DNA of 38,717 nucleotides, taken from contig JALSSG010000195.1 in NCBI GenBank assembly GCA_026984355.1, forward strand, positions 1 through 38,717, given 5' to 3'. The notes beneath the pieces are model-generated. The model did not search any database. It had not been told where the DNA came from and worked only from the letters and a program-made list of their open reading frames with translations. This document shows positions 1 through 27,240 of the stretch, one piece after another. How positions within the stretch are numbered: position 1 is the stretch's first letter; each line of letters begins with the position of its first letter. The position numbers and the translations under genes were made by a program. The DNA is from Hydrogenothermaceae bacterium (GTDB taxonomy: Bacteria > Aquificota > Aquificia > Aquificales > Hydrogenothermaceae).

Positions 1-2877
1 CCAGTTTCCACCAAATTTTAGATGGCCCCAACCATCAGACATTTCAAGAAGGTTTAGTAAATCTCCAACAACTTCATTATGACATTTATTATTTTTAAAG
101 AATAAAGGCTCCCATCCATGCTCTATGATTATTGCATCCTTTGGTGCAGAAGGATAAAGTTTTGCCATAGCATAGAACTCACCTAAAGCATTAAATACTC
201 TTACTTCATCTCCATCTTTTATTCCTTTTTTCTTAGCTATCTCTGGATTTATCATCACATATGGTTTTCCTCTCTGGAGTCTTAGTAGTATCTTTGAAGT
301 TTTATATGTTGAGTGAATTGACCATCTTGCGTGAGGTGACATTAGAACAAACGGATATCTTTTTGGTCTTATAGGTTCTTTTGCTGTTGGCAATGCTGCA
401 CCAAATTCTATCCATAAATCATGGTCTACATAATAAGTGAGTCTTCCTGATAAAGTTTCAAATCTTTCAAATAAGAAAAGATTATTCTCAAATGAATTAT
501 ATGGTTTATCTGGATAAAGAGGTGATGATTTACCAGCTTTATCATTTAACATTAAGAAACCACCTCTTTTTCTCATAGATTCAATAGTATTTGGTTTAAA
601 CTGGTCTACATTTTCAAGGGCAAATTCTACTGCATCTTTATCACTTCTTACCTTACCACCTATAGTATATTCTTCAACAAGCTTATCTAGTTCTCTGTAC
701 CCTGTTTTACTGTGAGTTGGGTCAGGGATTTTTATAAATCTTTCTGGATTAGAATCTCCCCTTTTCTTAGCTTCTTCATAGTGCTTTAATGCTATTTCTT
801 GAAGCTTTTCTACTATAAGAGTACAGATTTCCCATTCTGATTTAGCCTCGCCTACAGGTTTCAAGTTGGCAGGTGGCTGAGCTAAGTTAGCATATCTATG
901 ATAACCAGGGTTTGTTCTTAAATCCCAAACTTCATAATGAGATTTCGCTGGTAATACTATATCTGCATATTGAGCTGTTGAGTTCATTCTAAAGTCAACA
1001 TATGCAAAGAATTTAGCTTTCTTTAGGAAAGCTTCTCTATAAGTACTTCCTTTATTCCTTCTAAATCTTGAATCAGCAAATATAAGGAAAGTTTCTACTG
1101 TATCCCAGTATGGTTTTCCATCTTTTTTATGTAGATTATCTTTCCATTTTTCATCTGTTCCAAAGTTAGCAAGCGTCTCTTTTACTCTTTTTATATATTC
1201 ATCTTTTGATAACCCTGTTGCTCTTTTTACATCTTCATCTTCATAAAGTTTTTCAGCATCTTTTAACATATTACCTAACACAAATTCACTTACAAAACCT
1301 GAAGCAAATCTAAATTGATACTTGCCTGCAAAACCAGAAAGTTTACCCATTCCAGATATAGCCCATTCATTTTCTGTGTTTAATCCACCATAAGGTCCTA
1401 ACTTTCCAACAAGTCCTGGTATAGATGCAACTGCTCTATGAGAGAGTAAACCGTTAAAGTATTTACCAAGTGTAAATCCTACATTTATCTCAACAACTTT
1501 ATTTAAAGCTATATCTTTTGCTAATTGTTCTACAATTGTTGGATGAACACCTGTTAATTTCCATGTTTTTTCTGCAGAGAACTTTTTAGCTTCTTCCTTT
1601 AGAAGTTCAAATACTGTTGTAACCTTTACTTTAGAGCCATCTTTTAGTGTTACCTCCCATGTACCTTCTAAAGCTGGATCTATATCCCATCCTACATCTT
1701 TTAACCTTAAGGTTGGAACCGGGCATCCTTCAGTTCCTGGCATTAGTGTTAATTTATTTGTTTTTGTATTCCAACAGAAGAAACATGCTTCTGGTTCAAA
1801 TTCTTTACCTTCTGCTTTTTCTTCAAAAGTTTTATAAATTTCTTCATCAAATTCAGCTGGAGGATTTTCTATATCTATATCTGACATCCTAAGTAACTTT
1901 TTGTTATCAAGTCTTACTAAGAAAGGTAAATCTGTAAATACTTTTACAAAACCTTCCTTATAAAGTTTTTTCTGAATTATCTCATTAATAACAGCCATTG
2001 CAAGAAATGCATCATATCCAGCCTTTACCGGAACCCATAAATCTGCATGTATCGCTGTAGCATTAAAATCTGGTGTAATAACTATAACTTTCGAACCGTT
2101 ATATTTTCCTTCCCAAACAAAATGAGCATCAGGTATTCTTGTTTTATTTGGGTCCATACCCCAATAAACCTGTACATCTGTAACATATTGAAAATCCCAT
2201 GAACAACCTATATTACCTTCGCCATAAACTATAGAAACACCCTGAAACATATCACCAACATAAGATGCTATATATGGTCTTACAGCACCAAGAAGTGTTC
2301 CAAGTCTCTTACCTGAAGCTGCTCTTGCTTCTGTAAGCATTCCAGAACCTACATGTATATATAAACCTTCCGGTCCCTTCTCTAACATTGTTTTATATAT
2401 GTTTTCTGCTATCTCTGTTATCGCTTCATCCCACGTTATTCTTTTCCACTGTCCAGAGCCTCTTTCACCTACTCTTTTCAAAGGATATAAAAGCCTATCT
2501 TTTTCATACATTATTTGAGAGTGCTGTACTCCTTTATTACATCCTCTTGGGTTAAAGTCAGGGATTTTTGGATTTATAGGTGTGTAGTTTGCTACCTGAT
2601 TTTCTCTTGTAACGATACCATTATCTACCCAGACATCCCATGCACAGTTACCCTGACAGTTTACACAGTGATACGCTGTACCGTGTTCTTCTTTTTTACC
2701 ATAAGTATAGGCAAACTCTTTTCTATACATATTTTCTGTATATGAGGTATTTGGATAAGAAGCTCTTGGATCTTCTACCCAAACTGCATCCTTTGCAAAT
2801 GCAGCATTTCCTCCTAAGGTTAACCCAGCTCCCGTTGCGCTAAGGGCTTTTAAGAAGTCCCTTCTTGAAAGAGCCAT
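1..2877 (-). CDS. Tat-exported molybdopterin (bis-MGD) oxidoreductase catalytic subunit, type II DMSO-reductase family (Nar/Ser/Clr/Ddh/Ebd-like); C-terminus runs off the window
   Basis: Uninterrupted minus-strand frame from ATG at 2877 to base 1 (959 codons). It is absent from the ORF track because it is open at the edge. N-terminus MALSRRDFLKALSATGAGLTLGGNAAFA/KD is a twin-arginine signal. HCVNCQGNC (H-x3-C-x3-C, nt 2644-2670) followed by NPRGCNKG resembles the NarG-type FS0 4Fe-4S motif. GGAGG lies about 8 nt upstream of the ATG. Confidence 0.85.
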   Translation of the reverse strand, partial: MALSRRDFLKALSATGAGLTLGGNAAFAKDAVWVEDPRASYPNTSYTENMYRKEFAYTYGKKEEHGTAYHCVNCQGNCAWDVWVDNGIVTRENQVANYTPINPKIPDFNPRGCNKGVQHSQIMYEKDRLLYPLKRVGERGSGQWKRITWDEAITEIAENIYKTMLEKGPEGLYIHVGSGMLTEARAASGKRLGTLLGAVRPYIASYVGDMFQGVSIVYGEGNIGCSWDFQYVTDVQVYWGMDPNKTRIPDAHFVWEGKYNGSKVIVITPDFNATAIHADLWVPVKAGYDAFLAMAVINEIIQKKLYKEGFVKVFTDLPFLVRLDNKKLLRMSDIDIENPPAEFDEEIYKTFEEKAEGKEFEPEACFFCWNTKTNKLTLMPGTEGCPVPTLRLKDVGWDIDPALEGTWEVTLKDGSKVKVTTVFELLKEEAKKFSAEKTWKLTGVHPTIVEQLAKDIALNKVVEINVGFTLGKYFNGLLSHRAVASIPGLVGKLGPYGGLNTENEWAISGMGKLSGFAGKYQFRFASGFVSEFVLGNMLKDAEKLYEDEDVKRATGLSKDEYIKRVKETLANFGTDEKWKDNLHKKDGKPYWDTVETFLIFADSRFRRNKGSTYREAFLKKAKFFAYVDFRMNSTAQYADIVLPAKSHYEVWDLRTNPGYHRYANLAQPPANLKPVGEAKSEWEICTLIVEKLQEIALKHYEEAKKRGDSNPERFIKIPDPTHSKTGYRELDKLVEEYTIGGKVRSDKDAVEFALENVDQFKPNTIESMRKRGGFLMLNDKAGKSSPLYPDKPYNSFENNLFLFERFETLSGRLTYYVDHDLWIEFGAALPTAKEPIRPKRYPFVLMSPHARWSIHSTYKTSKILLRLQRGKPYVMINPEIAKKKGIKDGDEVRVFNALGEFYAMAKLYPSAPKDAIIIEHGWEPLFFKNNKCHNEVVGDLLNLLEMSDGWGHLKFGGNW

Positions 2878-2913
2878 TAAACTTACCTCCTAGTTTTTAG
2901 TTTCTATTTTTAG

Positions 2914-2940
2914 ATAAAAAATGGTGGGTTGCCCCACCAC
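2914..2940 (-). terminator. Intrinsic-terminator-like hairpin (7-bp G/C-rich stem, GCAA loop, U-run) between the Cys-tailed rhodanese-like gene and the molybdoenzyme gene
   Basis: Plus strand shows tGGTGGG-ttgc-CCCACCa at 2922-2939, preceded by aaaaaa at 2916-2921. The minus-strand RNA therefore reads stem, GCAA, stem, UUUUUU. Confidence 0.6.
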
Positions 2941-2947
2941 TAAGTTA

Positions 2948-3442
2948 TTATAAACAACCTCCACCACCACCCATTTTTGGTGGCTCATATTCACCATCTT
3001 CTGTTGGTAGACCAGCTTCATCCCATGCTACAACTCCACCTGCAAGGTTTTGAGCTATTTTGAATTTTTGAGCACATTTTTTGAATATCTCTGGGTCTCC
3101 ATCTCTTGATACTATTATTGTTGGGATATATGGATTAATTTGCTCAACCGCTTCTTCAGGAGCTTTTGATTCATCACAATCAGGAAGAGGAATAGCTCCA
3201 GGTAAATGAATGTCTGTATAGTATAGATACTCATCATCGTAATCTTCATCTTCTGGTTCATAAGGTCTAACATCTATTATCTGGATATTCACATTAGGAT
3301 TAGCAAGCTTTTTATATAGTTCTTGAGCTGTAACTGGTATTTGCTTTTGTAATTCTACTTCTTTCTTCCCAAAACTAACAAGTAAACCAGCAAGAACTAC
3401 AATCAAACCTATATATATTGCTCTTTCAATTTTTGGGTTCAT
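2948..3442 (-). CDS. Membrane-anchored rhodanese-homology-domain protein lacking the active-site Cys, with C-terminal GGGGGCL tail
   Basis: 164-aa ORF with an N-terminal TM (IYIGLIVVLAGLLVSF). Rhodanese-like pattern: IIDVRP...HLPGAIPLP...PTIIVSRDGDPE...LAGGVVAWDEAGLP. The loop position normally holding Cys is Ser. The protein ends ...EPPKMGGGGGCL. Confidence 0.75.
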   Translation of the reverse strand: MNPKIERAIYIGLIVVLAGLLVSFGKKEVELQKQIPVTAQELYKKLANPNVNIQIIDVRPYEPEDEDYDDEYLYYTDIHLPGAIPLPDCDESKAPEEAVEQINPYIPTIIVSRDGDPEIFKKCAQKFKIAQNLAGGVVAWDEAGLPTEDGEYEPPKMGGGGGCL

Positions 3443-3585
3443 TATTCTTCACCTCCTTCTTGGAGTTGTACCTGTGCTGATTGGGCTTTCTTTTCTAGGT
3501 CTGAAATTTGAGATTTTAACCCAATCAAACCAACAATAAGAACCACTATTGCTAACCAGTACAGTACTCTTTCTATCATGCTCAT
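3442..3585 (-). CDS. 47-aa single-pass membrane microprotein (not in ORF track)
   Basis: ATG at 3585. Translation: MSMIERVLYWLAIVVLIVGLIGLKSQISDLEKKAQSAQVQLQEGGEE. Its TAA stop (3442-3444) overlaps the ATG (3440-3442) of the downstream gene as TAATG. Its TM segment resembles the N-terminus of that downstream protein. Confidence 0.55.
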   Translation of the reverse strand: MSMIERVLYWLAIVVLIVGLIGLKSQISDLEKKAQSAQVQLQEGGEE

Positions 3586-3610
3586 TTGCTACACCTCTTT
3601 ATATTATTTT

Positions 3611-4741
3611 TTAATCGTATACTTCATCAGCCAATTGTTTAGCCTGAATGAATTTCATCCATCTTCCAAAGTATATTAAATTTGCTGTAAGTATTCCTAC
3701 AATAAAGAATGTTCCAGACTGAGCTATAGAACCTACTGATAAAGTAGGATATGCTGCCAGGAAAGACCCAGTAGTACACCCACCACCAATCATAGCTCCA
3801 AGGGCAAGGAAAAATCCACCAAAGAACACAAGTATAAGTCTAACCCATGGTATTGGTGTAACCGCTACAGCAAATGGCGGTGGAACTACATCAAACTTAA
3901 ATGTTTTTGATAATATAGCACTGATAAATGCTCCTGGTATTAATCCAAGTATCAACCCTGCATGCCATATAACAGTCTCATTTATAGTTGGAACTACTTG
4001 TAGCGGATGACCTAACATATGAGCAATCCATCCTACAAGTGCAAGTGCTGCTCCTGAAAATCCAAGATATTCACCCTGCACAGTAGCCCACGTTATTATA
4101 AGTCCTGCAAGTATTCCTGAAGGTAGCCAGTGCCATTCACCTCTTAACATATCTAAAAGAGAGCGAGGTTCCTGTTCTTTATAATACTTTTTAGCAGGGT
4201 CTAACCAATCAGCTATTATTGCAAATATTATGAATGCTATTCCCCATACTACTGCAACAACTCCATAAGGAAGGCCTAAAAGGCCATATAAAGTTATTTT
4301 CTCTTTCTTTGCCAGTATTCCAGCTTCTACGAGTGTAGGTTGAAGCTCATTATAAGCCAAAATTCCAGCAACAAGACCTATAACTCCTGCAATAGCTAAA
4401 AACTTACCAGCACCAACTCTGGCGACACATGTACCAGGACAAAAACCAGCTGATGCCATAGCTATACCAAATAAAAATCCACCTATAAGATGTGCTATCC
4501 CCATATATGGCATCACTCTTGGATATATATGAGTCATTTCAGCTATGCCTAAGATATCTACAAGACCATAGAGTATAGAAGACGTAGCTACACCTATAAA
4601 TGCAAATTTCATTATTTTAAGGTCTCTAAGCAGGAGCATTCCTTCCACTCTTGAATATCTTATAGCTCCTACTTTGTGTAAAACAGCACCAAATAGAGCA
4701 CCTGTTATTAAACCCATTATCAATGCATGTAGGTGCTCCAT
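3611..4741 (-). CDS. yeeE: YeeE/YedE-family sulfur (thiosulfate) transporter, copy A
   Basis: Polytopic membrane protein with the conserved Cys motifs GFCPGTC and GGGCTTG of the sulphur-transport family. I prefer the ATG at 4741 (MEHLHAL), which is preceded by AGGAGGTGA. The track's GTG start at 4750 lies inside that RBS. Confidence 0.85.
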   Translation of the reverse strand: MEHLHALIMGLITGALFGAVLHKVGAIRYSRVEGMLLLRDLKIMKFAFIGVATSSILYGLVDILGIAEMTHIYPRVMPYMGIAHLIGGFLFGIAMASAGFCPGTCVARVGAGKFLAIAGVIGLVAGILAYNELQPTLVEAGILAKKEKITLYGLLGLPYGVVAVVWGIAFIIFAIIADWLDPAKKYYKEQEPRSLLDMLRGEWHWLPSGILAGLIITWATVQGEYLGFSGAALALVGWIAHMLGHPLQVVPTINETVIWHAGLILGLIPGAFISAILSKTFKFDVVPPPFAVAVTPIPWVRLILVFFGGFFLALGAMIGGGCTTGSFLAAYPTLSVGSIAQSGTFFIVGILTANLIYFGRWMKFIQAKQLADEVYD

Positions 4742-4762
4742 TATAATCACCTCCTTGAAAGG

Positions 4763-5890
4763 TTAGTCATAAACTTCATCTGCTGCTTTTTTGGCCTGTA
4801 CAAATCTACTCCATCTACCAAAGTATATAAGGTTTGCAGTTAAAACCCCTATTACAAAGTAGGTGGCAGACATAGCCATAGGACCAACTGATAAAGTAGG
4901 ATATGCTGATAAAAATGCTCCGGTAGTACACCCACCACCAATCATAGCTCCAAGGGCAAGGAAAAGTCCACCAAAGAACACAAGTATAAGTCTAACCCAT
5001 GGTACTGGTGTAACCGCTACAGCAAATGGTGGTGGAACTGCATCAAACTTAAATGTTTTTGATAATATAGCACTGATAAATGCTCCTGGAAGCACTCCTA
5101 ATATTAAACCAGCATGCCACATAATTGTTTCATTTATATTTGGAACTATTTGCAGTGGATGACCTATTACATGAGCAACCCATCCTACAAGTGCAAGTGC
5201 TGCTCCTGAAAATCCAAGGTACTCACCTTGCATAGTAGCCCACGTTATTATAAGTCCTGCAAGTATCCCTGAAGGTAGCCAGTGCCATTCACCTCTTAAC
5301 ATATCTAAAAAGTTTCTATTTTCTTTTTGCTCATACTTTTTAGCAGGGTCAAACCAGTCAGCTATTATTGCAAATATTATGAATGCTATTCCCCATACTA
5401 CTGCAAGAACTCCATAAGGTATTCCTAAAAGACCATATAAAGTTATTTTTTCTTTTTGACCTAAAATACCTGCTTCTACTAAAGAAGGCTGAATAATGCT
5501 GTATATAACTATACCTAGTATAAGACCTATAACTCCTGCTGTTGCAAACCATTTACCAGCACCAACTCTGGCAACACATGTACCAGGGCAAAAACCAGCT
5601 GATGCCATAGCTATACCAAACAAAAATCCACCTATAAGGTGTGCTATCCCCATATATGGCATTACTCTTGGATGAATATTTAGTGCATCTGCATAGCCTA
5701 AGAGGTGAACAAGGCCGTAGATTATAGAAGTTGTTGCTATACCAGTGAATGCAAATTTCATTATTTTAAGGTCTCTAAGTAAGAGCATCCCTTCTACTCT
5801 TGAATATCTTATGGCTCCTACTTTATGTAAAACTATTCCAAATAAAGCTCCTGTTATTAAACCCATTATCAGTGCGTGTGTATGTTCCAT
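4763..5890 (-). CDS. yeeE: YeeE/YedE-family sulfur (thiosulfate) transporter, copy B
   Basis: 375-aa paralog of copy A with the same GFCPGTC and GGGCTTG motifs. A GGAGGT RBS sits at 5898-5903. Confidence 0.88.
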   Translation of the reverse strand: MEHTHALIMGLITGALFGIVLHKVGAIRYSRVEGMLLLRDLKIMKFAFTGIATTSIIYGLVHLLGYADALNIHPRVMPYMGIAHLIGGFLFGIAMASAGFCPGTCVARVGAGKWFATAGVIGLILGIVIYSIIQPSLVEAGILGQKEKITLYGLLGIPYGVLAVVWGIAFIIFAIIADWFDPAKKYEQKENRNFLDMLRGEWHWLPSGILAGLIITWATMQGEYLGFSGAALALVGWVAHVIGHPLQIVPNINETIMWHAGLILGVLPGAFISAILSKTFKFDAVPPPFAVAVTPVPWVRLILVFFGGLFLALGAMIGGGCTTGAFLSAYPTLSVGPMAMSATYFVIGVLTANLIYFGRWSRFVQAKKAADEVYD

Positions 5891-5905
5891 TTTCTATACC
5901 TCCAT

Positions 5906-5930
5906 AAAAAAACCGACCTGAGAAGGCCGG
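5906..5930 (-). terminator. Intrinsic-terminator-like hairpin directly abutting the yeeE-B RBS
   Basis: Minus-strand RNA reads CCGGCC-UUCUCA-GGUCGG (one G.U pair) followed by UUUUUUU, then immediately AUGGAGGU (the RBS). Confidence 0.6.
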
Positions 5931-5939
5931 CTCCTTTAA

Positions 5940-6914
5940 TTATTTTTCAATTGGAAGAGATGGATCATTACCCCATTCATCCCAAGAACCAACATATACT
6001 TTAGCTTTATCATGTCCTACAAGCTTTAAAGCAGCAAAAACAAAAGAACCTCTACCTGTACCAACGTGACAGTATGTAATTACTGTTTTGTCTGGAGTAA
6101 CACCAGCTTTTTTGAAGTATCTTTTTAGTTTTTTAAGTGGTTTAAATAGTGGTCTTCCTGGTTTTCCTGAAGGGTTTCCAGCTACTTTCTTCCACTCAAA
6201 GAATACAGCTCCAGGTATATGGCCACCTCTTTTAACCTGTATTTCTTTACCTGGCTCATATTCAGCTTTTAATAAAGCTTTTCCTACATATTCTTGAAAT
6301 CTTCTAGCATCTAATATGATGTAATGTTCTTTATCTTTGGTAGCTTTTAATACTTCTTCTTTTGTAGCAAGTATATCCCATCTTATATTTGCTTTAAATG
6401 TTTTTGGCTGTACTTTTGCATGTCCAGTTTCTAATGGATAACCTTTAGCTTCCCATGTAGCAAGTCCACCATCTAACATTTTTACCTGCCCTTTATCTGC
6501 ATCTAAACCGTAAAGATAGAGAAAATACCATACACCAGATGCATTTGGACCTCTTCCATCATCATAAGCTATAGCTGTCATATCATTACTTATACCAAGT
6601 TCTTCTCCAATAAATTTCTCTGCCCTTTCTTTACACATAGGAAGTCCATTACATTCTTTAATATCTTTTAGATAGTGTAAATCGTGAGCAGACGTTATAG
6701 CTGAACCTGGAATATGTTTTTCACATTTTTTTTCTCCATCACTACATATAAACCTAACATCTGGTTTTCCAACTAAAGCTTTAGCATCATCTACCCATAT
6801 TAAAAATGGAGCTGGTGGAGATTTTCTCTCCTTTTTAGCTGCTTGAGCTTCAAATGGCATTACTAAAGAAGCAGCTGCTATACTTAGAACTGCTGTTGAC
6901 AGTATTTTCCTCAT
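5940..6914 (-). CDS. Secreted two-domain rhodanese (thiosulfate sulfurtransferase family)
   Basis: Active-site loop YCHVGTGRGS is in the C-terminal domain. Signal peptide MRKILSTAVLSIAAASLVMPFEAQA/A. I prefer the ATG at 6914 (M39 of the track ORF) because GGAGGT lies 7 nt upstream and this start yields a canonical signal peptide. Confidence 0.85.
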   Translation of the reverse strand: MRKILSTAVLSIAAASLVMPFEAQAAKKERKSPPAPFLIWVDDAKALVGKPDVRFICSDGEKKCEKHIPGSAITSAHDLHYLKDIKECNGLPMCKERAEKFIGEELGISNDMTAIAYDDGRGPNASGVWYFLYLYGLDADKGQVKMLDGGLATWEAKGYPLETGHAKVQPKTFKANIRWDILATKEEVLKATKDKEHYIILDARRFQEYVGKALLKAEYEPGKEIQVKRGGHIPGAVFFEWKKVAGNPSGKPGRPLFKPLKKLKRYFKKAGVTPDKTVITYCHVGTGRGSFVFAALKLVGHDKAKVYVGSWDEWGNDPSLPIEK

Positions 6915-7043
6915 TGATATACCTCCTGTTTTATTTTGTGGGACTTTTTGATTTTTTTGTAGGGTGGGATATAGGTTTTTTGTGGCAGGCGCCATATGAA
7001 GAAGTTTTTTTCTTTTAAAAATAAACATTTTAAATCCATATGC

Positions 7044-7059
7044 GGATATAAATATATCC
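7044..7059. promoter_or_regulatory. Perfect 7-2-7 inverted repeat GGATATA-AA-TATATCC in the rhodanese leader (candidate operator)
   Basis: Read directly from the sequence. It lies just downstream of the candidate -10 element. The AT-rich context raises the chance of a random match. Confidence 0.3.
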
Positions 7060-7069
7060 TAACTGATAG

Positions 7070-7098
7070 ATAATATACCAATTCAGTTAAGTTAACAA
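7070..7098 (-). promoter_or_regulatory. Candidate sigma70-type promoter for the sulfur cluster (TTGTTA-17-TATTAT)
   Basis: Minus-strand hexamers are at 7098-7093 and 7075-7070 with a 17-nt spacer, about 150 nt upstream of the rhodanese ATG. Confidence 0.3.
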
Positions 7099-7215
7099 GC
7101 CTTAACCTATGTTTATTCTTTCTATAAGAAAGTTTTAATATTCTAATTATCAAATGCATTCCATAATTGTAAAACTAAAAAAATAAAAATTTCAATATGT
7201 CAAAAAGGAATAAGG

Positions 7216-9231
7216 CTAACTTTTAGGTAGTTCTATAATAAAGTGTGCACCATTTGAAGACTTTACAGCTTTGATAGTTCCACTATGTAATTCTATTATT
7301 TCCTTTGCTATAGATAGTCCAAGACCACTACCTTTGGCTTTTTTTGAAAAATAAGGGGAAAAAACTTTTTCTAATTCTTCTTCTGGAATACCTGTACCAT
7401 TATCTGTAATATCAAGTACAACTTTATCATCATATTCATACACCTTTAGTTTTACCCATCGTTCCTTTTGTTTTTCTGTGGCTTCATAACTGTTTTGAAT
7501 TAAATTAGCAAGAGCCTGTCTAAGTAAGGTTCTATCACCTACAATTTTAACATCCTCATTTAAGTCAAGGTAAACCTTAAAATCAGATGTTTCATACCTA
7601 TCTTTTAGTTCTTTTAATAAATCACTTAAATTAAATGGTTCTTTTCTTAATTTATCCTGTATAGAAGCAAACTGGTTAAACTCTCTAACAAGATTGGATA
7701 AATAATCTACTTCTTTAAAAATTATATCTGTAGCTTTTTTTAATATCTCTGGAAAGTTGGGATTTTCTTTTTCATACTGTCTTATTATTCTTTCTGCTGA
7801 TAGTCTTATAGGAGTTAAAGGATTTTTTATTTCGTGTGCTATTCGCTGGGCTATTTCTTTCCATGCTAATATTTTTTCAGCATTAACAATATTTGTAATA
7901 TCGTCTATAACTAAAACATAACCTTTTTTTGTATTTTCTATTTTTGTTAATTTCATAAGGAGTATTTTTCCATTATATTTTACTTTTGCACCTTTCTTTA
8001 ATTCATCTAAGCTAAAACCAAGTTCTTTTATAAAATCTACTATATCTTTATTAATAACTTTACTTTTATCTATACCTAATATTTTAATTGCAGCACTATT
8101 TATTTTTTGAATTTTTCCTTCTTCATCTGAGAAGATTACACCTGTTTTGGCAGTTTCAAGTATCGTTTCTAAATATTGATTACTATAAGCTAGCTCTTTG
8201 TTTTTTATTTCTAACTGTTTATAAAGATTTTGTAATTGACTTACCATATGGTTAAATTCATCTATTAAGATTCCTATTTCGTCTTTAGATGATATATTCA
8301 CTCTTACGTTTAAATTACCTTTAGCAAGTTTTTTTGATGCTTCTGCAAGCTGTTCCAAAGGATACGTAAGATTTCTAACTATATAATGGCTAAACCATAT
8401 AGCTGCTAATATTATGAACATTGTGATTATTAACATTGTAAGGATATAACCAATTCTGATTGGATTTTTATAGTATCTAAATTGAGAGTATAGTTTTAGT
8501 ATTGATTTAACCTGCTTATTTTTCTTGGATAGAAAATCTGGTAGTTTTTTGTCTATTATTACAATATTCTGGTTTTTTTTCTTTAAGTATCTAAGGTAAG
8601 CTCTGTCATCTTTATAAAAGATTAGATACTTTTTCTCTAAAAGCCTTTTATAATCTATTGAAGCTATTTTTTGACCGTATATAGCTTTTTTTCCATTTTC
8701 TATAATAACAATAGAGTTTAAGTCAAAGTAAGTTAATAATTTGTCTGGTTGTATCTTTTCATTTAGAATAAGTTCTGCTATTGAATCTGCTATTTTGACG
8801 TACTCTTTTTTATTTTTTTCTAATATTTCATCTATTGTTTTTAAAGCTTCTTCAACTTTACCACTAAACCATATATTTGTAGCATTTGATATCAAACTTA
8901 TAGAAGCTATTGATATTATCATCGAAGGAATTATAACTAATGAAAGCAGTATAACAGTTAGTTTTTTCCTTAATTTTCCCCGAGATTTTCTTTCTTCAAA
9001 AAAAAGTTTGATAAAATATCTTAACGCTAAGGCAAGAATTGTAAGAAAAAATACTACATTTATATTAAGTATAATCAAAAATGCATAAGGATTATATATA
9101 CCTTCTTCTACCTTTGATAACTTGCCATATATATATACATTTCCAACAATAAATACGAACAAAACTATTAAGGCTATAAGTATATTTCTCTTTTTTTTAT
9201 GCCTTTTATTAGCCTGGTTTTCCAAAACCAT
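7216..9231 (-). CDS. NtrY-like membrane sensor histidine kinase (TM-HAMP-PAS-HisKA-HATPase)
   Basis: N-terminal TM segments. H-box IAHEIKNPLTPIRLSAE, N-box NLIQNSYEA, G-boxes DNGTGIP and GSGLGLSIA. Confidence 0.85.
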   Translation of the reverse strand: MVLENQANKRHKKKRNILIALIVLFVFIVGNVYIYGKLSKVEEGIYNPYAFLIILNINVVFFLTILALALRYFIKLFFEERKSRGKLRKKLTVILLSLVIIPSMIISIASISLISNATNIWFSGKVEEALKTIDEILEKNKKEYVKIADSIAELILNEKIQPDKLLTYFDLNSIVIIENGKKAIYGQKIASIDYKRLLEKKYLIFYKDDRAYLRYLKKKNQNIVIIDKKLPDFLSKKNKQVKSILKLYSQFRYYKNPIRIGYILTMLIITMFIILAAIWFSHYIVRNLTYPLEQLAEASKKLAKGNLNVRVNISSKDEIGILIDEFNHMVSQLQNLYKQLEIKNKELAYSNQYLETILETAKTGVIFSDEEGKIQKINSAAIKILGIDKSKVINKDIVDFIKELGFSLDELKKGAKVKYNGKILLMKLTKIENTKKGYVLVIDDITNIVNAEKILAWKEIAQRIAHEIKNPLTPIRLSAERIIRQYEKENPNFPEILKKATDIIFKEVDYLSNLVREFNQFASIQDKLRKEPFNLSDLLKELKDRYETSDFKVYLDLNEDVKIVGDRTLLRQALANLIQNSYEATEKQKERWVKLKVYEYDDKVVLDITDNGTGIPEEELEKVFSPYFSKKAKGSGLGLSIAKEIIELHSGTIKAVKSSNGAHFIIELPKS

Positions 9232-9236
9232 AAACC

Positions 9237-9998
9237 TTAAAGTTCTAATTCTCTAGGTGGTACACCTATATACTCTGCTTCTTTTTCTTCATCTAATCTT
9301 TTTGAAAATGGCTTTTCTAATGTATATTCCTCATAGGTATGAGCCACAAGTCCGGGTATTCTACCTACTATCCATAAACCTTCCCCTATTTTCCAGTCAA
9401 AGCCAAGCTCTGATGCTACAGCAGCTACAGCTCCATCTACATTTAAAATTAATTTTTTGCCTTTTTTCTTTTCTATTTCTTTTTCTATCTTTAATGCAAA
9501 ATCACAGTATTTTCCATAAAAACCAAGGTTTTTAGCAATGGAAAAAAGCTTTTGTGTTCTTGGGTCTCCTTCTTTATAGTATCTGTGTCCATATCCAGGT
9601 ATTCTCTTTTTTTCATTAAAAAATTTCTCTACCACTTCTTCAGGTTTTTTATCTATGTTTTCCTGTAAAAGTTTCATTGCATCTTCTAATGCTCCTCCAT
9701 GAACCTTGCCAAACGCAAGTACACCAGCACCAACTCCTACGTGTATAGGATTACCTCCACTTATAACAGCTCTTGCAGCAATTACAGAAGGTGGTGCTAT
9801 AGAATGCTCAATCATTGTTATAAGTATTGCATCCATCATTTTTGTTTTTCTTTCATCAGGTAGATTTCCAGTAAGGACAAGATATATAGCCTGAGAAAAT
9901 GTAAGGTTGCCTATAAGGTCTTTTAATTTGTAGCCTCTTACATATGCTTCTTTATCAAAATGCCAGCTTATAGCTGTTTTCCATTTTTTCTTCTCCAT
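9237..9998 (-). CDS. Short citrate-synthase-family protein, citryl-CoA-lyase-like
   Basis: 253 aa carrying the citrate synthase catalytic motifs VHGGALE, PGYGHRYYKEGDPR and NVDGA. The size matches the stand-alone CCL type. Confidence 0.7.
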   Translation of the reverse strand: MEKKKWKTAISWHFDKEAYVRGYKLKDLIGNLTFSQAIYLVLTGNLPDERKTKMMDAILITMIEHSIAPPSVIAARAVISGGNPIHVGVGAGVLAFGKVHGGALEDAMKLLQENIDKKPEEVVEKFFNEKKRIPGYGHRYYKEGDPRTQKLFSIAKNLGFYGKYCDFALKIEKEIEKKKGKKLILNVDGAVAAVASELGFDWKIGEGLWIVGRIPGLVAHTYEEYTLEKPFSKRLDEEKEAEYIGVPPRELEL

Positions 9999-15541: not shown

Positions 15542-15937
15542 TTATTTCGCAAGTTCCTGTACTATATCTTTTATAATTTTATCTACCTCATTTGCTATAT
15601 CTGATATGCTTTCTCCGAAAACCTGTGACATAGAAGAAGGTTCCATAGTTGAAATTACTGTTTTACCACCTTTTGTATATATAGCCACTCTACACGGCAG
15701 AAAACAAGCAACCTTACTTTCCTTTGTAAGTGCCTGCTTTGCATAAGATGGATTACATATTTCAAAAATGTAAACTTCTTCTTCTATTGGATGTCCTTTT
15801 TCTTCTAAAAGCTTATGAACATTATATGAGTGTAAAGTACCAAACCCTTTTTCCTTAGCTTTTTCTTCAAAAATATTAACAATTTCTTCAGGTTTTTTTG
15901 TTGTTTCTATTTCGTAAATCATCTTGCTCACCTCCAT
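15542..15937 (-). CDS. DUF302-domain protein
   Basis: GFGTLHSYNVHKLL...FLPCRVAIYTKGGKTVIS matches the DUF302 pattern. An alternative start at 15922 (MIYEI) has GGAGGTGA upstream. Confidence 0.7.
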   Translation of the reverse strand: MEVSKMIYEIETTKKPEEIVNIFEEKAKEKGFGTLHSYNVHKLLEEKGHPIEEEVYIFEICNPSYAKQALTKESKVACFLPCRVAIYTKGGKTVISTMEPSSMSQVFGESISDIANEVDKIIKDIVQELAK

Positions 15938-16017
15938 ATCAACACCTTATTAACTAGATAATATTCTATATTATAATAACTTTTATTTAATCATTTTTTT
16001 GTTTTTCAGGAGGAATC

Positions 16018-16173
16018 ATGGAAACTGAAAGCACATGGTTTGAGCTTGCAGGAATTATATTCTTTACATTCATGGTAGTAACTGTAGGTCTTTTATGGGC
16101 TTTATCCATTAAAGCAAGTTATAACGAAGAAAAGAAAAAACAAAACGAAAAATCTTTGCAGGAGAAAAAATGA
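16018..16173 (+). CDS. 51-aa single-pass membrane microprotein (not in ORF track)
   Basis: An AGGAGGA RBS lies 4 nt upstream. Translation: METESTWFELAGIIFFTFMVVTVGLLWALSIKASYNEEKKKQNEKSLQEKK. Its TGA overlaps the next ATG as ATGA (16170-16173). Confidence 0.5.
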   Translation: METESTWFELAGIIFFTFMVVTVGLLWALSIKASYNEEKKKQNEKSLQEKK

Positions 16174-16658
16174 GGAAAAATCTTCCATTTTTCATTATTA
16201 CAGGTTTAGGTATAGTAGCTACTCTTTTTTTAGTTTACTTTTTTGTATATAACATGGCTGTTGAAACTGTAAGATCTGCTGTCTTTATAGAAAGAGCGTA
16301 TCCAAATATCAAACCTGAAGAGTATGTAAACGAACTAAAATCCTCAGCTAAAAAAAATAATCTTACACTATTAGATATTAAACAAAACAATCAGTATTAT
16401 CTTCTTCAAATGTACGATGAAAATATAATAAATAAACTTTCCCAAATTTCACCAAATCTTGTTTCAATAGGAGTTATAAATCTTGTTGTTTACTCAGTTG
16501 GAAGTGGAACTGGTATCGTTGCTAACAATCCATATTTATGGGATATAGCCATACCTAGTGATTATGTAGATGACCTTTCCGAAAATTTTTCTAACCAACT
16601 AATTGATATATTTGATGGTATTTACTGGCAGATAAAAGAAAAGAAAAAAGAGTTATAA
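16170..16658 (+). CDS. Membrane-anchored hypothetical protein, possibly DUF302-like
   Basis: N-terminal TM. The stretch LVSIGVINLVVYSVGSGTGIVANNP loosely resembles the DUF302 core. Confidence 0.55.
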   Translation: MRKNLPFFIITGLGIVATLFLVYFFVYNMAVETVRSAVFIERAYPNIKPEEYVNELKSSAKKNNLTLLDIKQNNQYYLLQMYDENIINKLSQISPNLVSIGVINLVVYSVGSGTGIVANNPYLWDIAIPSDYVDDLSENFSNQLIDIFDGIYWQIKEKKKEL

Positions 16659-16670
16659 AGGGGGAAAACT

Positions 16671-18044
16671 ATGATAAAGTTTGGAACAGATGGATGGCGA
16701 GATGTTATTGCTGATAAGTTTACATTTGAGAATGTAAAAAAAGTCGCTCAAGCTCATGCAGAACATATAAAAAATAACAATGGAAGAAAGGTTGCTATAG
16801 GTTATGATACTCGGTTTATGTCTGAAGAATTTGCTAAAGCAGTAGCAGAAGTCTTTGCAAGTAATGATTTAGAAGTAATCCTATCTAAAGGACACTGTTC
16901 TACACCTGCATTATCTTTGATAACCAGAGATTTCAAATGTGATGAAGGTGTAATGATAACAGCATCTCACAATACATATCAGTACAATGGATATAAAATA
17001 AAAGGAGGTTATGGAGGACCAGCTACACCGAAAATAGTTTCTGATGTAGAAAAAAGAATAAAAAATATATCTGTAAAAGAAGGCAAAAGAGAATGGGAAG
17101 AAATAGATATAAATGAGTACTATCTGACAAAATTAAAAAATTATTTAATTGAAGAACTTTTTAAACAACACCATAAAAAATTAGTTCACGACCCAATGCA
17201 TGGAGCTACTATAGGCTACTTAAGTCGAGTATTAGATGGAACTTTTTTAGAAACGATAGAAATAAATAACTTTAGGGATGCATTTTTTGGATTTCACCAC
17301 CCAGAACCAATAGAAAAAAACTTACAGCTTTTAATGGCAAAAGTACTCGCTACAGAATCTATAGTAGGTATAGCAAATGATGGAGATGGAGATAGAGTGG
17401 GCATCGTTGCAGAAGATGGAGAGTTTGTAAGCACTCAGACAGTATATGCACTTTTATTACTTCATCTTATAAGAAATAAAAAAATTCCTGGAGCAGTAGT
17501 AAAAACTATCTCTACTTCTTATTTAGTAGATAGAATATGTGAAAAAGAAGGTAGAAAATTATATAAAACACCAGTCGGATTTAAATATATTGCAGACATT
17601 ATGTTAAAAGAACAGGTTGCCTTTGGTGGTGAAGAGTCTGGAGGATATGGATTTGGATTTCATATTCCTGAGAGAGACGGATTGTTATCAGGATTAATGA
17701 TTTTGGAACTAATCCTATTAAAAGAAAAACCATTAACTGATATAATAAAGCAATTACATGACGAATTTGGTACAGCTTTTTATAAAAGAGTAGATATAAA
17801 GGTAAAAGGAAATCAAGGAAGAGAGCTAATAGAGAAACTTAAAGAAAATACACCAGATAGTTTTGCTGGGAAAAAAATAAGAGAGATAGATAAAACTGAC
17901 GGAATAAAACTTATATTTGAAGATGATAGCTGGATTTTGTTTAGAGCTTCTGGAACTGAACCTGTACTTAGAGTATATGCAGAAGCACCATCAAAAGAAG
18001 AACTAAATAACCTTATAAATGAAGGAATAAAACTCATTAATTAG
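16671..18044 (+). CDS. Phosphoglucomutase/phosphomannomutase family protein
   Basis: FGTDGWR N-terminus, phosphoserine loop TASHNTYQYNGYK, metal loop ANDGDGDR, sugar loop GGEESGG. Confidence 0.9.
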   Translation: MIKFGTDGWRDVIADKFTFENVKKVAQAHAEHIKNNNGRKVAIGYDTRFMSEEFAKAVAEVFASNDLEVILSKGHCSTPALSLITRDFKCDEGVMITASHNTYQYNGYKIKGGYGGPATPKIVSDVEKRIKNISVKEGKREWEEIDINEYYLTKLKNYLIEELFKQHHKKLVHDPMHGATIGYLSRVLDGTFLETIEINNFRDAFFGFHHPEPIEKNLQLLMAKVLATESIVGIANDGDGDRVGIVAEDGEFVSTQTVYALLLLHLIRNKKIPGAVVKTISTSYLVDRICEKEGRKLYKTPVGFKYIADIMLKEQVAFGGEESGGYGFGFHIPERDGLLSGLMILELILLKEKPLTDIIKQLHDEFGTAFYKRVDIKVKGNQGRELIEKLKENTPDSFAGKKIREIDKTDGIKLIFEDDSWILFRASGTEPVLRVYAEAPSKEELNNLINEGIKLIN

Positions 18045-24538: not shown

Positions 24539-25297
24539 TTGAATTACATAACTACCATAATTACAGCTTTAATTTTTCTGTATTTTTATAACACGTATGC
24601 TAAAGATAGTATCATTCTTGCAGTTTCTGCTAATGCTCAATATGTGATTGATGAAATTATAAAAGCTTATAAACAAAAACATACAGATGTTTCTATAAAA
24701 AAAATAGTTTCTTCTTCTGGAAAACTTACAAATCAAATCACAAAAGGGGCACCATTTGATATATTTTTGTCTGCTGACATGAACTATCCTATCTTCCTTT
24801 ACAAAAAAGGTCTAACAATAACAAAGCCAAAAACATATGCTTATGGACTTATTGTGTTATGGACTACAAAAAATTTTTCTAAAAAAGACCTGAATATAAA
24901 TATCATTTACAAAGTAAACAAAATAGCAATCCCAAATCCCAAAACAGCTCCCTATGGAAGAGAAAGCATAAAAATTTTAAAAAATTTAAAAGTTTTTAAA
25001 AAGATAAAAAACAGAATAATCTATGGAGAAAGTGTATCTCAGGTAAACTACTATATATTAAAAGGTTTTGTTGATATAGGTTTTACATCAAAATCATCTG
25101 TATTAGCACCTGTAGTAAAAAGTAAAGGTATATGGGTAGAAGTAGACAAAAATCTGTATAATCCGATAAAGCAAGGAGCAGTATTACTGAAAAATGCAAA
25201 GAATAAAAAGCAGGCTTACGAATTTTTTAGATTTCTTTTTTCAAAAAAAGCAAAAGAAATATTCAAAAAATATGGATACCTGGTAAAAGATGAATAA
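24539..25297 (+). CDS. modA: Molybdate ABC transporter substrate-binding protein ModA
   Basis: TTG start, signal peptide, SSSGKL and DIFLSAD motifs, sits in the mod operon. Confidence 0.85.
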   Translation: MNYITTIITALIFLYFYNTYAKDSIILAVSANAQYVIDEIIKAYKQKHTDVSIKKIVSSSGKLTNQITKGAPFDIFLSADMNYPIFLYKKGLTITKPKTYAYGLIVLWTTKNFSKKDLNINIIYKVNKIAIPNPKTAPYGRESIKILKNLKVFKKIKNRIIYGESVSQVNYYILKGFVDIGFTSKSSVLAPVVKSKGIWVEVDKNLYNPIKQGAVLLKNAKNKKQAYEFFRFLFSKKAKEIFKKYGYLVKDE

Positions 25298-25685
25298 GCT
25301 AAAAGGCTTTATATCAAAGGTCAGTACCTCCGGAAACATATCTATAGTAGAAGTAAACATTCAAAGTGAAAAAATTTTCTCAATAATTATAGGAAATAAA
25401 GAAGAATTCTTAAAAATAGGAAATGAAGTTTATGTACTTTTTAAAGAAACAGAAGTGTCAATAGCAAAAGATTTCAAAGGAGAAATTAGCTTACAAAATA
25501 GACTAAACTGTAAGATATTAAAAATAAACAAAGGAAAACTTTTAACAGAAATTATTATGCAGTGGAAAAATGAAAAAATTAAATCAATCATAACTACAAA
25601 ATCTGCAGAACGACTATCTCTAAGAGAGGGTGATAACATAACAGCATTTATAAAAACAAATGAAGTATCTCTTATGGAGATATAA
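25290..25685 (+). CDS. mop: Tandem TOBE/Mop-domain molybdate-binding protein
   Basis: Two repeats of about 65 aa. The second, NRLNCKILKINKGKLLTEI...IITTKSAERLSLREGDNITAFIKTNEVSL, matches the Mop pattern. Confidence 0.75.
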   Translation: MNKLKGFISKVSTSGNISIVEVNIQSEKIFSIIIGNKEEFLKIGNEVYVLFKETEVSIAKDFKGEISLQNRLNCKILKINKGKLLTEIIMQWKNEKIKSIITTKSAERLSLREGDNITAFIKTNEVSLMEI

Positions 25686-25687
25686 AA

Positions 25688-26374
25688 GTGCAAATAGATA
25701 AAGATTTTATAGAAACATTAGTTATTACATTCAAGCTTGCCTTTTTAACTACTTCCATATTAGTAATAATTGGTATCCCTCTTGGATACTTTCTTGCATA
25801 CACAAAAAGTAAATTCAAACCGATAATTGAAACAGTTATAGCTATGCCTTTAGTTCTTCCACCTACAGTAATTGGTTTTTATTTTCTTGTATTTTTTTCC
25901 CCAGATGCATATATAGGGAAATTTCTAGAAAACATATTTAATATAAAACTTGTATTTACATTTGAAGGATTAGTGGTAGCCTCTATACTATACAGTTTAC
26001 CTTTTATGGTTCATCCTTTACAGTCTGGGTTTTCATCTATTCCAAAATCTATTATAGAAGCTTCATATACATTAGGTAAATCTAAACTACAAACGTTAAT
26101 TAAAGTACTAATCCCCAACACAAAATCATCTATTATAACGGGAATTGTACTTTCTTTTGCTCACACAATAGGAGAATTTGGAGTAGTTTTAATGGTTGGT
26201 GGTTCTATTCCTGGTGAAACAAAAGTAGCCTCTATAGCCATATATGAGGAAGTAGAAGCACTTAACTACAAAAAAGCTCATCTTTATTCCTTAGTACTAT
26301 TTGGTATATCCTTTTTAATCTTACTGATTCTTTTTTATGTAAATAAAAAAATTATTAAAGCTGATAAATTATGA
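25688..26374 (+). CDS. modB: Molybdate ABC transporter permease ModB
   Basis: GTG start, 5 TM, EAA-loop EASYTLGKSKLQTLIKVLIP. Confidence 0.88.
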   Translation: MQIDKDFIETLVITFKLAFLTTSILVIIGIPLGYFLAYTKSKFKPIIETVIAMPLVLPPTVIGFYFLVFFSPDAYIGKFLENIFNIKLVFTFEGLVVASILYSLPFMVHPLQSGFSSIPKSIIEASYTLGKSKLQTLIKVLIPNTKSSIITGIVLSFAHTIGEFGVVLMVGGSIPGETKVASIAIYEEVEALNYKKAHLYSLVLFGISFLILLILFYVNKKIIKADKL

Positions 26375-27240
26375 TAGAAATTAAAATAAAAAAACACCTT
26401 ACTGGGCAAGATACAGAATTTGAGCTTAATATAGATATACATATAAAGGATAAAGAGTTTATTACATTATTTGGCAAATCTGGTGCTGGAAAAACAACTA
26501 TTCTCAGAATATTAGCTGGGTTAACTCCTGTAGATTATGGTTTTATAAAAGTTAAAGAAAAAATATGGCTTGATACTGAAAGGAATATAAATCTTCCACC
26601 ACAAAAAAGAAATATAGGTTTCGTTTTTCAAGATTATGCATTATTCCCAAATATGACTGTAGAAGAAAATATAAAGTTTGCAATGGATAAACAAAATCAA
26701 GAATTTTTAGATAGCATTTTAGAAACTATGCAACTAAAACATTTAAAACATCAAAAACCAGATAAACTATCAGGAGGACAAAAACAAAAAGTAGCTATAG
26801 CAAGAGCAATAGCAAGAAAACCTGATATTCTTCTTCTTGATGAGCCTCTGTCAGCTCTTGATTTGGACACAAGACTAAAATTTCAAGAAGAGATAAAAAA
26901 AATACATAAAGAGTTTCAGCTAACTACTATATTGGTAAGTCATGATTTTTCTGAAATATTTAAGTTATCAGATAGAGTATTTGTGTTATCTAATGGAAAA
27001 ATTATCAAAAGTGGAAAGCCAGAAGATGTTTTTATCCAGGAAAAACTAAGTGGAAAAGTAAAACTAACAGGGCAAATTATAAAAATTGAGAAAGAAGATA
27101 TAGTTTATGTAATATCTGTTCTAATAGGAAATAACATAATAAAGGTTGTTGCTGTAGAAGAAGAGATAAAAGACCTAAATGTTGGAGATAACGTTATAAT
27201 AGCAACAAAAGCATTTAATCCATTTATAATAAAAATGTAA
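26371..27240 (+). CDS. modC: Molybdate ABC transporter ATP-binding protein ModC
   Basis: Walker A GKSGAGKTT, signature LSGGQKQKVAIARA, Walker B LLLDEP, C-terminal TOBE-like domain. Confidence 0.88.
   Translation: MIEIKIKKHLTGQDTEFELNIDIHIKDKEFITLFGKSGAGKTTILRILAGLTPVDYGFIKVKEKIWLDTERNINLPPQKRNIGFVFQDYALFPNMTVEENIKFAMDKQNQEFLDSILETMQLKHLKHQKPDKLSGGQKQKVAIARAIARKPDILLLDEPLSALDLDTRLKFQEEIKKIHKEFQLTTILVSHDFSEIFKLSDRVFVLSNGKIIKSGKPEDVFIQEKLSGKVKLTGQIIKIEKEDIVYVISVLIGNNIIKVVAVEEEIKDLNVGDNVIIATKAFNPFIIKM

Follow-up and report, generated by a model that had tools for sequence, protein, structure and literature searches.

At the left end of a 38.7 kb stretch of DNA from a Hydrogenothermaceae bacterium (contig JALSSG010000195.1; the whole stretch is called the window here), the minus strand carries genes for a secreted two-domain rhodanese (Rhod2), two YeeE-family channels, a membrane microprotein, a tethered rhodanese-fold protein with a Cys near its C-terminus (CysTail) and a molybdoenzyme with a twin-arginine translocation (Tat) signal (MoA). 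The locus raises the question of whether these genes belong together and, if so, what stands in for the TusA-family partner that is missing beside YeeE, and on what the molybdoenzyme acts. The cluster forms the first half of a conserved module of eight genes, whose products are named here, in order, Rhod2, YeeE, microprotein, CysTail, MoA, MoB, MoC and MoD. MoD and CysTail, which are otherwise unrelated, both end in a flexible arm with Cys as the last residue but one. Judged from sequence, the gene set probably handles sulfur on such protein-bound Cys arms. The explanation that we put forward, with reservations, is a Sox-like system for carrier-arm oxidation built on the eight genes.

One functional module in distant lineages

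Every cluster element named by the original prediction, which had been made from the letters of the DNA, was found on the minus strand by open reading frame (ORF) listing, translation, and Pfam and NCBIfam scans (Table 1). Gene order in other genomes was mapped by tblastn and read only as far as each contig reaches. A genome scan with CysTail (query: 10 closer sequences) provided 22 Hydrogenothermaceae loci, from Persephonella, Hydrogenothermus, Sulfurihydrogenibium and metagenome-assembled genomes, and the order of the eight genes is kept in these. Three more Aquificota loci (L027-L029) share this order, and the module recurs outside Aquificota in seven loci of 44-73% G+C (L026 and L030-L035), some of them labelled Myxococcota. 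The 73% G+C contig (L026) covers the rhodanese, YeeE, a 43-residue ORF, CysTail and the start of a Tat-signal MoA. Conservation of the neighbourhood had been set beforehand as a check, and across the 22 + 3 + 7 loci CysTail and the microprotein always lie between YeeE and the molybdoenzyme. A search of public data with MoA gave over 2,000 relatives with E under 1e-50. Each of the 120 best has an identity of 58% or more, and Anaeromyxobacteraceae, Myxococcus and Archangium are represented among them. The full set of genes, in the same order, accompanied all six non-Aquificota MoA homologues whose context was examined (44-72% G+C).

The flanking genes differ between lineages, and the upstream flanks are kept only in the closest Hydrogenothermaceae relatives; the histidine kinase gene that precedes the cluster in the window adjoins it only in these and in L027/L028. 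Within the module the genes are tightly packed. The microprotein stop codon overlaps the CysTail start (ATGA), CysTail and MoA as well as MoC and MoD overlap in L032, MoC and MoD overlap in L035, and intergenic gaps in several lineages are just 9-33 nt. Such overlaps and short gaps imply co-transcription. That the cluster is one functional module and not a set of chance neighbours is shown by four observations together: the order is conserved, translation is coupled, two of the proteins have an arm motif in common, and CysTail occurs exclusively with MoA. Moreover, the link to the molybdoenzyme, which had been suggested only as possible, is closer than that, since the enzyme operon itself encodes a protein, MoD, with the same G-C-L tail.

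An assimilatory YeeE thiosulfate-uptake operon lying by chance beside an independent molybdoenzyme operon would be an alternative, and it has a precedent in the assimilatory importer YeeE/TsuA of E. coli (PMC11073785); in the window, terminator-like hairpins flank the yeeE block. Against this, distant lineages of 30-73% G+C have the same adjacency with different flanks, in L032 there is gene overlap across what would be the boundary, CysTail homologues are found only in the context of the module, and a protein with the terminus of CysTail, MoD, is encoded within the enzyme operon. This alternative is largely refuted: synteny effectively excludes it, and we regard it as extremely improbable.

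The two hairpins differ in their conservation. Hairpin 1, after the rhodanese gene (-18.5 kcal/mol; z -4.4 versus shuffled sequence), has an equivalent with a GC stem and a U-tract in 11 Hydrogenothermaceae loci, which suggests attenuation or a higher dosage of the rhodanese; the rhodanese-yeeE gap is 9-18 nt in the non-Aquificota lineages. Hairpin 2, before moA (-15.2 kcal/mol; z -3.8 versus shuffled sequence; followed by a T-run), is present in few relatives only; most relatives have gaps of 26-33 nt or overlapping genes at this place. The candidate promoter 5' of the rhodanese gene contains two 10-of-12 matches of the sigma-70 type, the number of matches in the region being no higher than in shuffled sequence.

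Cultured strains that carry the module include Persephonella marina, P. hydrogeniphila, Sulfurihydrogenibium azorense, S. subterraneum and S. yellowstonense, which makes it directly testable. Some of the loci have irregularities of their own: there are frameshifts in CysTail of L030 (L030:9440-9934) and in several genes of L034, and in L025, which looks like a chimeric short contig, MoA is inverted onto the end of CysTail.

Cysteine arms and the proposed partner of YeeE

CysTail consists of a transmembrane helix, a rhodanese fold and a Gly-rich arm ending PPKMGGGGGCL, so that the C-terminus is G-C-L-COOH. The ending GGGCL is found in every lineage, as well as in about 15 full-length members recovered by an exhaustive profile search. 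In an alignment of 22 homologues C123 and the tail residue C163 are invariant and C89 is nearly so. The catalytic Cys of rhodaneses is absent; its position is occupied by a nearly invariant Ser (IIVSRDGDPE), replaced by Gly or Thr in a few homologues. The AlphaFold2 model shows a long N-terminal helix, a rhodanese fold (predicted local distance difference test, pLDDT, 87) and a disordered tail, and its rhodanese matches in Foldseek reach 4e-6.

The second armed protein, MoD, is encoded by the fourth gene of the enzyme operon, just past the left end of the window. It has 150 residues, with a signal peptide and an acidic linker; Rhod2, MoA and MoC also carry export signals, and MoD of L035 has a lipobox. 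MoD ends ...PKPKPGFFKGCL in Hydrogenothermaceae and ...KPGAFKGCL or ...KPGSFKGCL in other lineages. The terminus (F/A/S)FKGCL is present in 27 of 28 aligned homologues and in all six loci from other lineages. No Pfam or NCBIfam family matches MoD. Its AlphaFold2 model is a barrel resembling the oligonucleotide/oligosaccharide-binding (OB) fold (pLDDT 81), followed by a low-confidence tail predicted to be disordered, and a Foldseek search of the PDB with this model gave no match below E=0.01. A SoxY-like fold was rejected on these grounds. A role as a NarJ-like chaperone was also rejected, given the signal peptide and the absence of a family match; the TorD/NarJ-like gene of the Persephonella-type locus L029 lies no nearer than about 5 kb further downstream. 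In one Aquificota lineage (L027:9469-10522 and 15871-17478; same region in L028) both armed proteins are multiplied. It has two CysTail paralogues, the second with an extended tail, ...GGGCGSGGNEVSIVYSW, and three MoD paralogues, the third of which has lost the GCL end.

The C-terminal Cys-Leu could have another meaning: a processing or maturation signal, for instance one removed by QbsE-like clipping, or part of a tail that plugs or chaperones the enzyme or channel, with the molybdoenzyme (MoABC) acting on a free small molecule. In the QbsE/QbsD precedent GG-CF is clipped to expose a terminal Gly; GG immediately precedes CL in CysTail, and a sister family devoid of Cys (P0304-P0307) stops at ...G, at the very point where CysTail goes on to CL. 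However, only one Gly precedes CL in MoD, and the protein is periplasmic, where a C-terminal Gly could not be activated at the expense of ATP. Neither a JAMM protease nor an E1-like gene was found in the Hydrogenothermaceae loci, and the ThiF+rhodanese gene of L031 lies within a molybdenum cofactor biosynthesis block. Moreover, the tail Cys of CysTail co-varies with the two internal ones, C89 and C123: the three are conserved together, and all are lost together in the sister family. We consider clipping or plugging very unlikely. The members of the sister family are likewise membrane-anchored, with a rhodanese fold, and end ...RGxxxG where CysTail has ...GGGCL. An intermediate sequence (P0301) ends PAGCL and lacks the two internal Cys.

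The microprotein consists of a single transmembrane helix and a polar or acidic tail. ORFs of 42-52 residues with one such helix occupy its slot in nearly all loci, tblastn missing only that of L016, and no Pfam family matches it. In Aquificota, its N-terminus and helix (MSMIERVLYWLAIVVL) are similar to the N-terminal CysTail anchor (MNPKIERAIYIGLIVVL), a likeness which suggests that the two may share a docking partner or have arisen by partial duplication.

Rhod2 orthologues head the cluster in all lineages. The active-site loop of the C-terminal domain, YCHVGTGRGS, is kept throughout and has the form of a catalytic rhodanese, in which the Cys opens a six-residue loop after the central beta strand. 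The N-terminal domain contains a conserved C-x-G-L-P-M-C pair, and the protein matches the NCBIfam model for two-domain 3-mercaptopyruvate sulfurtransferases at 1.9e-30. Its start had been placed at 7028; the ATG at 6914 is the most likely one, opening a signal peptide (MRKILS...) behind an AGGAGG ribosome-binding site.

The two YeeE proteins of the window are 83% identical, and in both PF04143 (Sulf_transp) covers profile positions 10-306 of 310 at about 1e-31. The tandem arrangement, to which the original prediction had given weight, is real in the window and is not a property of the cluster: most loci have a single copy and L005 has three, so that the tandem is lineage-specific, a local duplication. 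The contigs L001-L003, identical to the window, end inside yeeE copy 1, the kind of break that a tandem repeat is expected to cause. The idea of a designed heterodimer was rejected because most loci have one copy. The motifs C-P-G-T-C and GGGC-TTG contain three Cys residues that all 35 of the 35 distinct YeeE sequences of the module share. Compared with StYeeE in the PDB (2.6e-11), the equivalents of C91 and C293 are kept, and the position of C22 is Arg (Ala in the PDB construct that was matched). The NCBIfam equivalog TsuA is matched at 5e-20 with 72 bits, the cut-off of 400 bits not being reached.

No gene for a TusA-family protein accompanies these channels. Among the ORFs of the window, none has the CPxP motif of TusA in a plausible position, and phmmer searches of six-frame ORFs with the E. 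coli sequences of TusA, YeeD and YedF gave nothing better than E of about 3 in the window; over all loci searched, there was no small ORF with CPxP and no phmmer match below E=1. Pfam scans of the remaining genes revealed no TusA, YeeD or DsrE in the whole 38.7 kb. The reported absence of these carriers from the window was thus borne out. A tusA or yeeD gene just outside it, which had been named as a finding that would count against the idea, was not found within about 10 kb on either side in any locus searched; the identical contigs L001 and L002 reach 10 kb beyond the left end of the window.

The arrangement recalls the YeeE/TsuA-YeeD/TsuB pairs of E. coli and Spirochaeta thermophila (PDB 6LEO, 8J4C), in having the PF04143 channel, with equivalents of the essential pore residues C91 and C293, and a small Cys-bearing protein encoded beside it. 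In the module, however, this putative partner is not of the TusA family: it is a tethered, inactive rhodanese with a Cys arm, together with the microprotein. The channel is a distant relative, without an equivalent of C22 and with an extra Cys (CPGTC), and its context is a respiratory molybdoenzyme rather than assimilation.

The type II enzyme and its possible substrate

Within the window, 959 of the 975 residues of MoA are encoded, the gene running off the left end; the full length is available in L002. The original prediction had described it as a NarG-type Tat molybdoenzyme. The Tat signal (MALSRRDFLK) and the class of enzyme stand, but MoA belongs to the type II branch of the dimethyl sulfoxide (DMSO) reductase family and is closer to PcrA (4ydd, 1e-115) and EbdA (1e-96) than to NarG (4e-55). 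Against the curated type II models MoA scores 816 bits (TIGR03479; cut-off 985), the four-cluster beta subunit MoB (370 residues) 532 bits (TIGR03478; cut-off 481) and the gamma subunit MoC (396 residues) 118 bits (TIGR03477; cut-off 170). In MoC an EB_dh heme b domain is joined to a c-type cytochrome domain, the latter a weak match to SoxX. The Asp ligand of Mo (VGD) aligns with D170 of PcrA, and the aromatic gate residues F164 and Y165 of PcrA are replaced in MoA by Ile and Ala, W167 being aligned with Tyr. A perchlorate reductase was rejected, even though PcrA is the best PDB match, because these gate residues are not conserved. The replacements, with the score below the curated type II cut-off, make this clade an uncharacterised one. 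Across 120 homologues the FS0 motif HCVNCQGNC...C (residues 70-78 and C113) does not vary. It fits the type II pattern H-x3-C-x3-C as well as the type I pattern C-x2-C-x3-C, and PcrA has Leu at the extra Cys.

Like PcrABC, EbdABC, SerABC, DdhABC, ClrABC and the pNar/Nxr enzymes, MoABC has an alpha subunit that is exported by Tat and contains an H/C-x3-C-x3-C FS0 motif as well as an Asp ligand of Mo, a beta subunit above the family cut-off, an EB_dh heme b gamma subunit and a periplasmic location. It differs from them in the scores of MoA and MoC and in the PcrA gate, in the extra c-type cytochrome domain of MoC and in its fourth gene, which encodes the secreted, Cys-tailed MoD in place of a NarJ-like chaperone. 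The enzyme of the module is also always preceded by the rhodanese/YeeE set.

The module may run a sulfane-sulfur relay, for which the substrate, the direction of the reaction, the order of loading and the membrane side of the CysTail domain are here those that we infer from the genes. Thiosulfate or polysulfide would supply secreted Rhod2 with sulfane sulfur, to be bound as a Cys persulfide and handed on to the penultimate Cys of the G-C-L arms. The arm carriers would be the secreted MoD, whose gene abuts or overlaps that of the gamma subunit, and the membrane-tethered CysTail, encoded beside YeeE. MoABC might then oxidise the arm-bound sulfur, as SoxCD does on the GGCGG arm of SoxY, with electrons passing through the Fe-S clusters to heme b, heme c, a soluble cytochrome c and a terminal oxidase. 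The Cys-lined YeeE, with the microprotein and CysTail, could move sulfur across the membrane for oxidation or sensing in the cytoplasm, CysTail filling the role that TusA-family YeeD/TsuB has for TsuA.

That the parts point to sulfur follows from the catalytic periplasmic rhodanese, the Cys-lined YeeE and two kinds of neighbours. A fusion of an ArsR helix-turn-helix domain with a rhodanese occupies the slot of the histidine kinase in five of six non-Aquificota lineages with upstream sequence, L031 having none (in L035 the region upstream of the rhodanese gene is cut off), and SorAB sulfite dehydrogenase is encoded divergently upstream in two of the six non-Aquificota loci. An oxidative direction is indicated less firmly, by the fused c-type cytochrome of MoC and by the genes downstream: a small cytochrome c in three of the six loci and a caa3-type oxidase after the module in two. 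An ApbC/Mrp-type Fe-S carrier ATPase is also encoded 3' of the module in five of the six, and SCO1 is among the neighbours in other lineages.

The reverse direction has its own merits. MoABC might reduce oxidised sulfur (thiosulfate, tetrathionate or protein S-thiosulfonate) with electrons from cytochrome c, and the reduced sulfane formed would be captured and taken up by the rhodanese, the Cys arms and YeeE. The closest solved relative, PcrA, is a reductase, enzymes of the Ser and Clr type take electrons from c-type cytochromes, and rhodanese/Sud proteins are partners of sulfur reductases, as are Wolinella Sud and Aquifex SbdP. Behind the module, most Hydrogenothermaceae have a Psr/Ttr-like unit in the order B-C-A (L002:8881-12865, L029:10543-17098), consisting of an FeS protein of about 200 residues, NrfD and a 1,090-residue Tat molybdoenzyme. 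Its best PDB match is the polysulfide/thiosulfate reductase of Thermus (2vpw, 1.6e-35), and TtrB is the best NCBIfam match of its B subunit; beyond it lie genes for a TorD/NarJ-like chaperone, a 334-residue polyferredoxin and a FadL-like outer-membrane protein. However, L027/L028 and all the non-Aquificota loci lack this unit, the neighbours in other lineages are SorAB and the caa3-type oxidase rather than other anaerobic reductases, and the SoxX-like cytochrome fused to the gamma subunit hints weakly at oxidation. A reductive module seems unlikely. Systems in which a rhodanese persulfide feeds a Mo/W-pterin enzyme are known from Sud-Psr of Wolinella, the SbdP-sulfur reductase pair of Aquifex and ergothioneine synthase, but these are without YeeE or Cys-armed carriers, and their catalytic subunits are of the Psr or acetylene hydratase type and not type II. 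The metallopterin-dependent ergothioneine synthase is described in PMC9516567.

Selenium or tellurium could also be the element concerned, with a Ser-like selenate reductase, a YedE-like selenium channel and selenium held on the arms as selenotrisulfide or perselenide. Some Sulfurihydrogenibium species respire selenate, a gene resembling the C-terminal part of YedF lies near the module in L030, and there are weak matches of YeeE to YedE/FdhT in NCBIfam (1.6e-7) and of Rhod2 to ExtH, the rhodanese of selenite/tellurite operons (3e-9), and to a family of rhodanese-related selenoproteins. All of these matches, however, are far under the family cut-offs, and YeeE scores higher with TsuA than with YedE. 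Moreover, the module is also present in Persephonella and S. yellowstonense, which are not known as selenate reducers, and its neighbours are sulfur-oxidation genes. A selenium module appears very improbable.

Returning to carrier-arm oxidation, several observations weigh against it. The terminator-like hairpins after the rhodanese gene in Hydrogenothermaceae and, in the window, before moA mean that transcription may be partly uncoupled. Cytochrome c is not only an electron acceptor but can also serve as the donor to type II reductases (Ser and Clr, for example), and its presence does not fix the direction of the reaction. No known specificity is transferable to MoA, given its TIGR03479 score and its altered gate. 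The OB-like rather than SoxY-like fold of MoD and the lack of a significant structural match leave its tail as the whole argument for a carrier role. The charges flanking the CysTail transmembrane helix vary between lineages, making the topology ambiguous by the positive-inside rule.

The likeness to SoxYZ and SoxCD lies in the periplasmic Cys on a flexible, Gly-rich arm (GGCGG in SoxY; GGGGGCL and FFKGCL here) and in a molybdoenzyme with a c-type cytochrome that would act on arm-bound sulfur and deliver electrons to cytochrome c. It is a functional resemblance only, without relation in sequence or fold: SoxY has an immunoglobulin-like fold, MoD is OB-like and CysTail has the rhodanese fold. 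SoxC is of the sulfite oxidase family, whereas MoA is of the DMSO reductase family, with bis-molybdopterin guanine dinucleotide and an Fe-S chain. Furthermore, no SoxXA or SoxB is encoded in the module, where the rhodanese is the likely loader. A YeeE-like protein, SoxT, is likewise linked to Sox for sulfur import; the proposal is that it draws sulfur off the SoxY arm and brings it into the cytoplasm (PMC11582611).

Taken further, this could amount to an unrecognised pathway of periplasmic sulfur oxidation in Aquificota, Myxococcota and others, in which a type II enzyme oxidises sulfur on the MoD arm and CysTail and YeeE form a TusA-free transmembrane persulfide relay, the whole parallel to SoxCD/SoxY and independently evolved; we think this possible, though doubtful. 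All domains come from known families, and what is new is the system: the type II clade, the two carrier-like proteins, the microprotein and the putative non-TusA partner of YeeE. No description of the gene set, of a function for the MoA clade or of the G-C-L-tailed proteins was found in the full-text literature, whose coverage was incomplete. The 'Soe-like' candidate of Thioalkalivibrio (PMC6620896) was considered and rejected as a different, cytoplasmic enzyme.

The passage of sulfane sulfur across the cytoplasmic membrane, and the cargo and recipients of the YeeE family, are open questions in the physiology of sulfur oxidisers (PMC11582611). The module offers a compact and widely conserved test case in which the partner of the channel would be a tethered protein arm and not TusA. 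If the proposal is correct, protein-bound sulfur would be a new class of substrate for the DMSO reductase family, carrier-arm oxidation of sulfur would have been invented a second time, independently, and MoD, CysTail and the microprotein, families without functional annotation here, would acquire a function.

Other features of the window

Table 1. Module genes and associated elements in the window (positions in nt)
Feature	Position	Strand	Evidence or remark
MoA, type II DMSO-reductase-family alpha subunit	1..2877	-	Pfam Molybdopterin + Molydop_binding; Tat signal
Hairpin 2, terminator-like stem-loop and T-run, between the CysTail gene and moA	2920..2941	-	
CysTail, 164 residues, transmembrane helix, rhodanese fold and G-C-L arm	2948..3442	-	Pfam Rhodanese 1.6e-7
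Microprotein, 47 residues, single transmembrane helix and polar or acidic tail	3442..3585	-	
YeeE copy 2	3611..4750	-	PF04143, 2.8e-31; likely true start ATG at 4741
YeeE copy 1	4763..5890	-	PF04143, 4.1e-32
Hairpin 1, terminator/attenuator-like stem-loop and U-tract	5905..5938	-	directly 3' of the rhodanese stop codon
Rhod2, secreted two-domain rhodanese, 324 residues	5940..6914	-	Pfam Rhodanese 4.5e-21
Candidate promoter region, in the AT-rich 300-nt gap 5' of the rhodanese gene	7146..7195	-	consensus match
HAMP-PAS histidine kinase, possible regulator	7216..9231	-	Pfam; directly upstream of the cluster

The remainder of the window consists of ordinary housekeeping genes. The histidine kinase gene has no adjacent response regulator. 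It accompanies the cluster in the closest relatives and in L027/L028 together with the gene for a 253-residue protein (9237-9998 in the window) that matches only the C-terminal part of citrate synthase, a pattern that fits the citryl-CoA lyase of the reductive tricarboxylic acid cycle in Aquificota.

A molybdate-type ATP-binding cassette uptake set is located at 24539-27240, about 17 kb from the molybdoenzyme cluster, and comprises a periplasmic binding protein (SBP_bac_11), a TOBE-domain protein, a permease and an ATPase. A further membrane protein related to sulfur, a putative sulfite exporter of the TauE/SafE family (347 residues; 32775-33818), is unlinked to the cluster in other loci. In the divergent intergenic region at about 15940-16170 both gene orientation and GC skew flip, the latter from about -0.2 to about +0.2.

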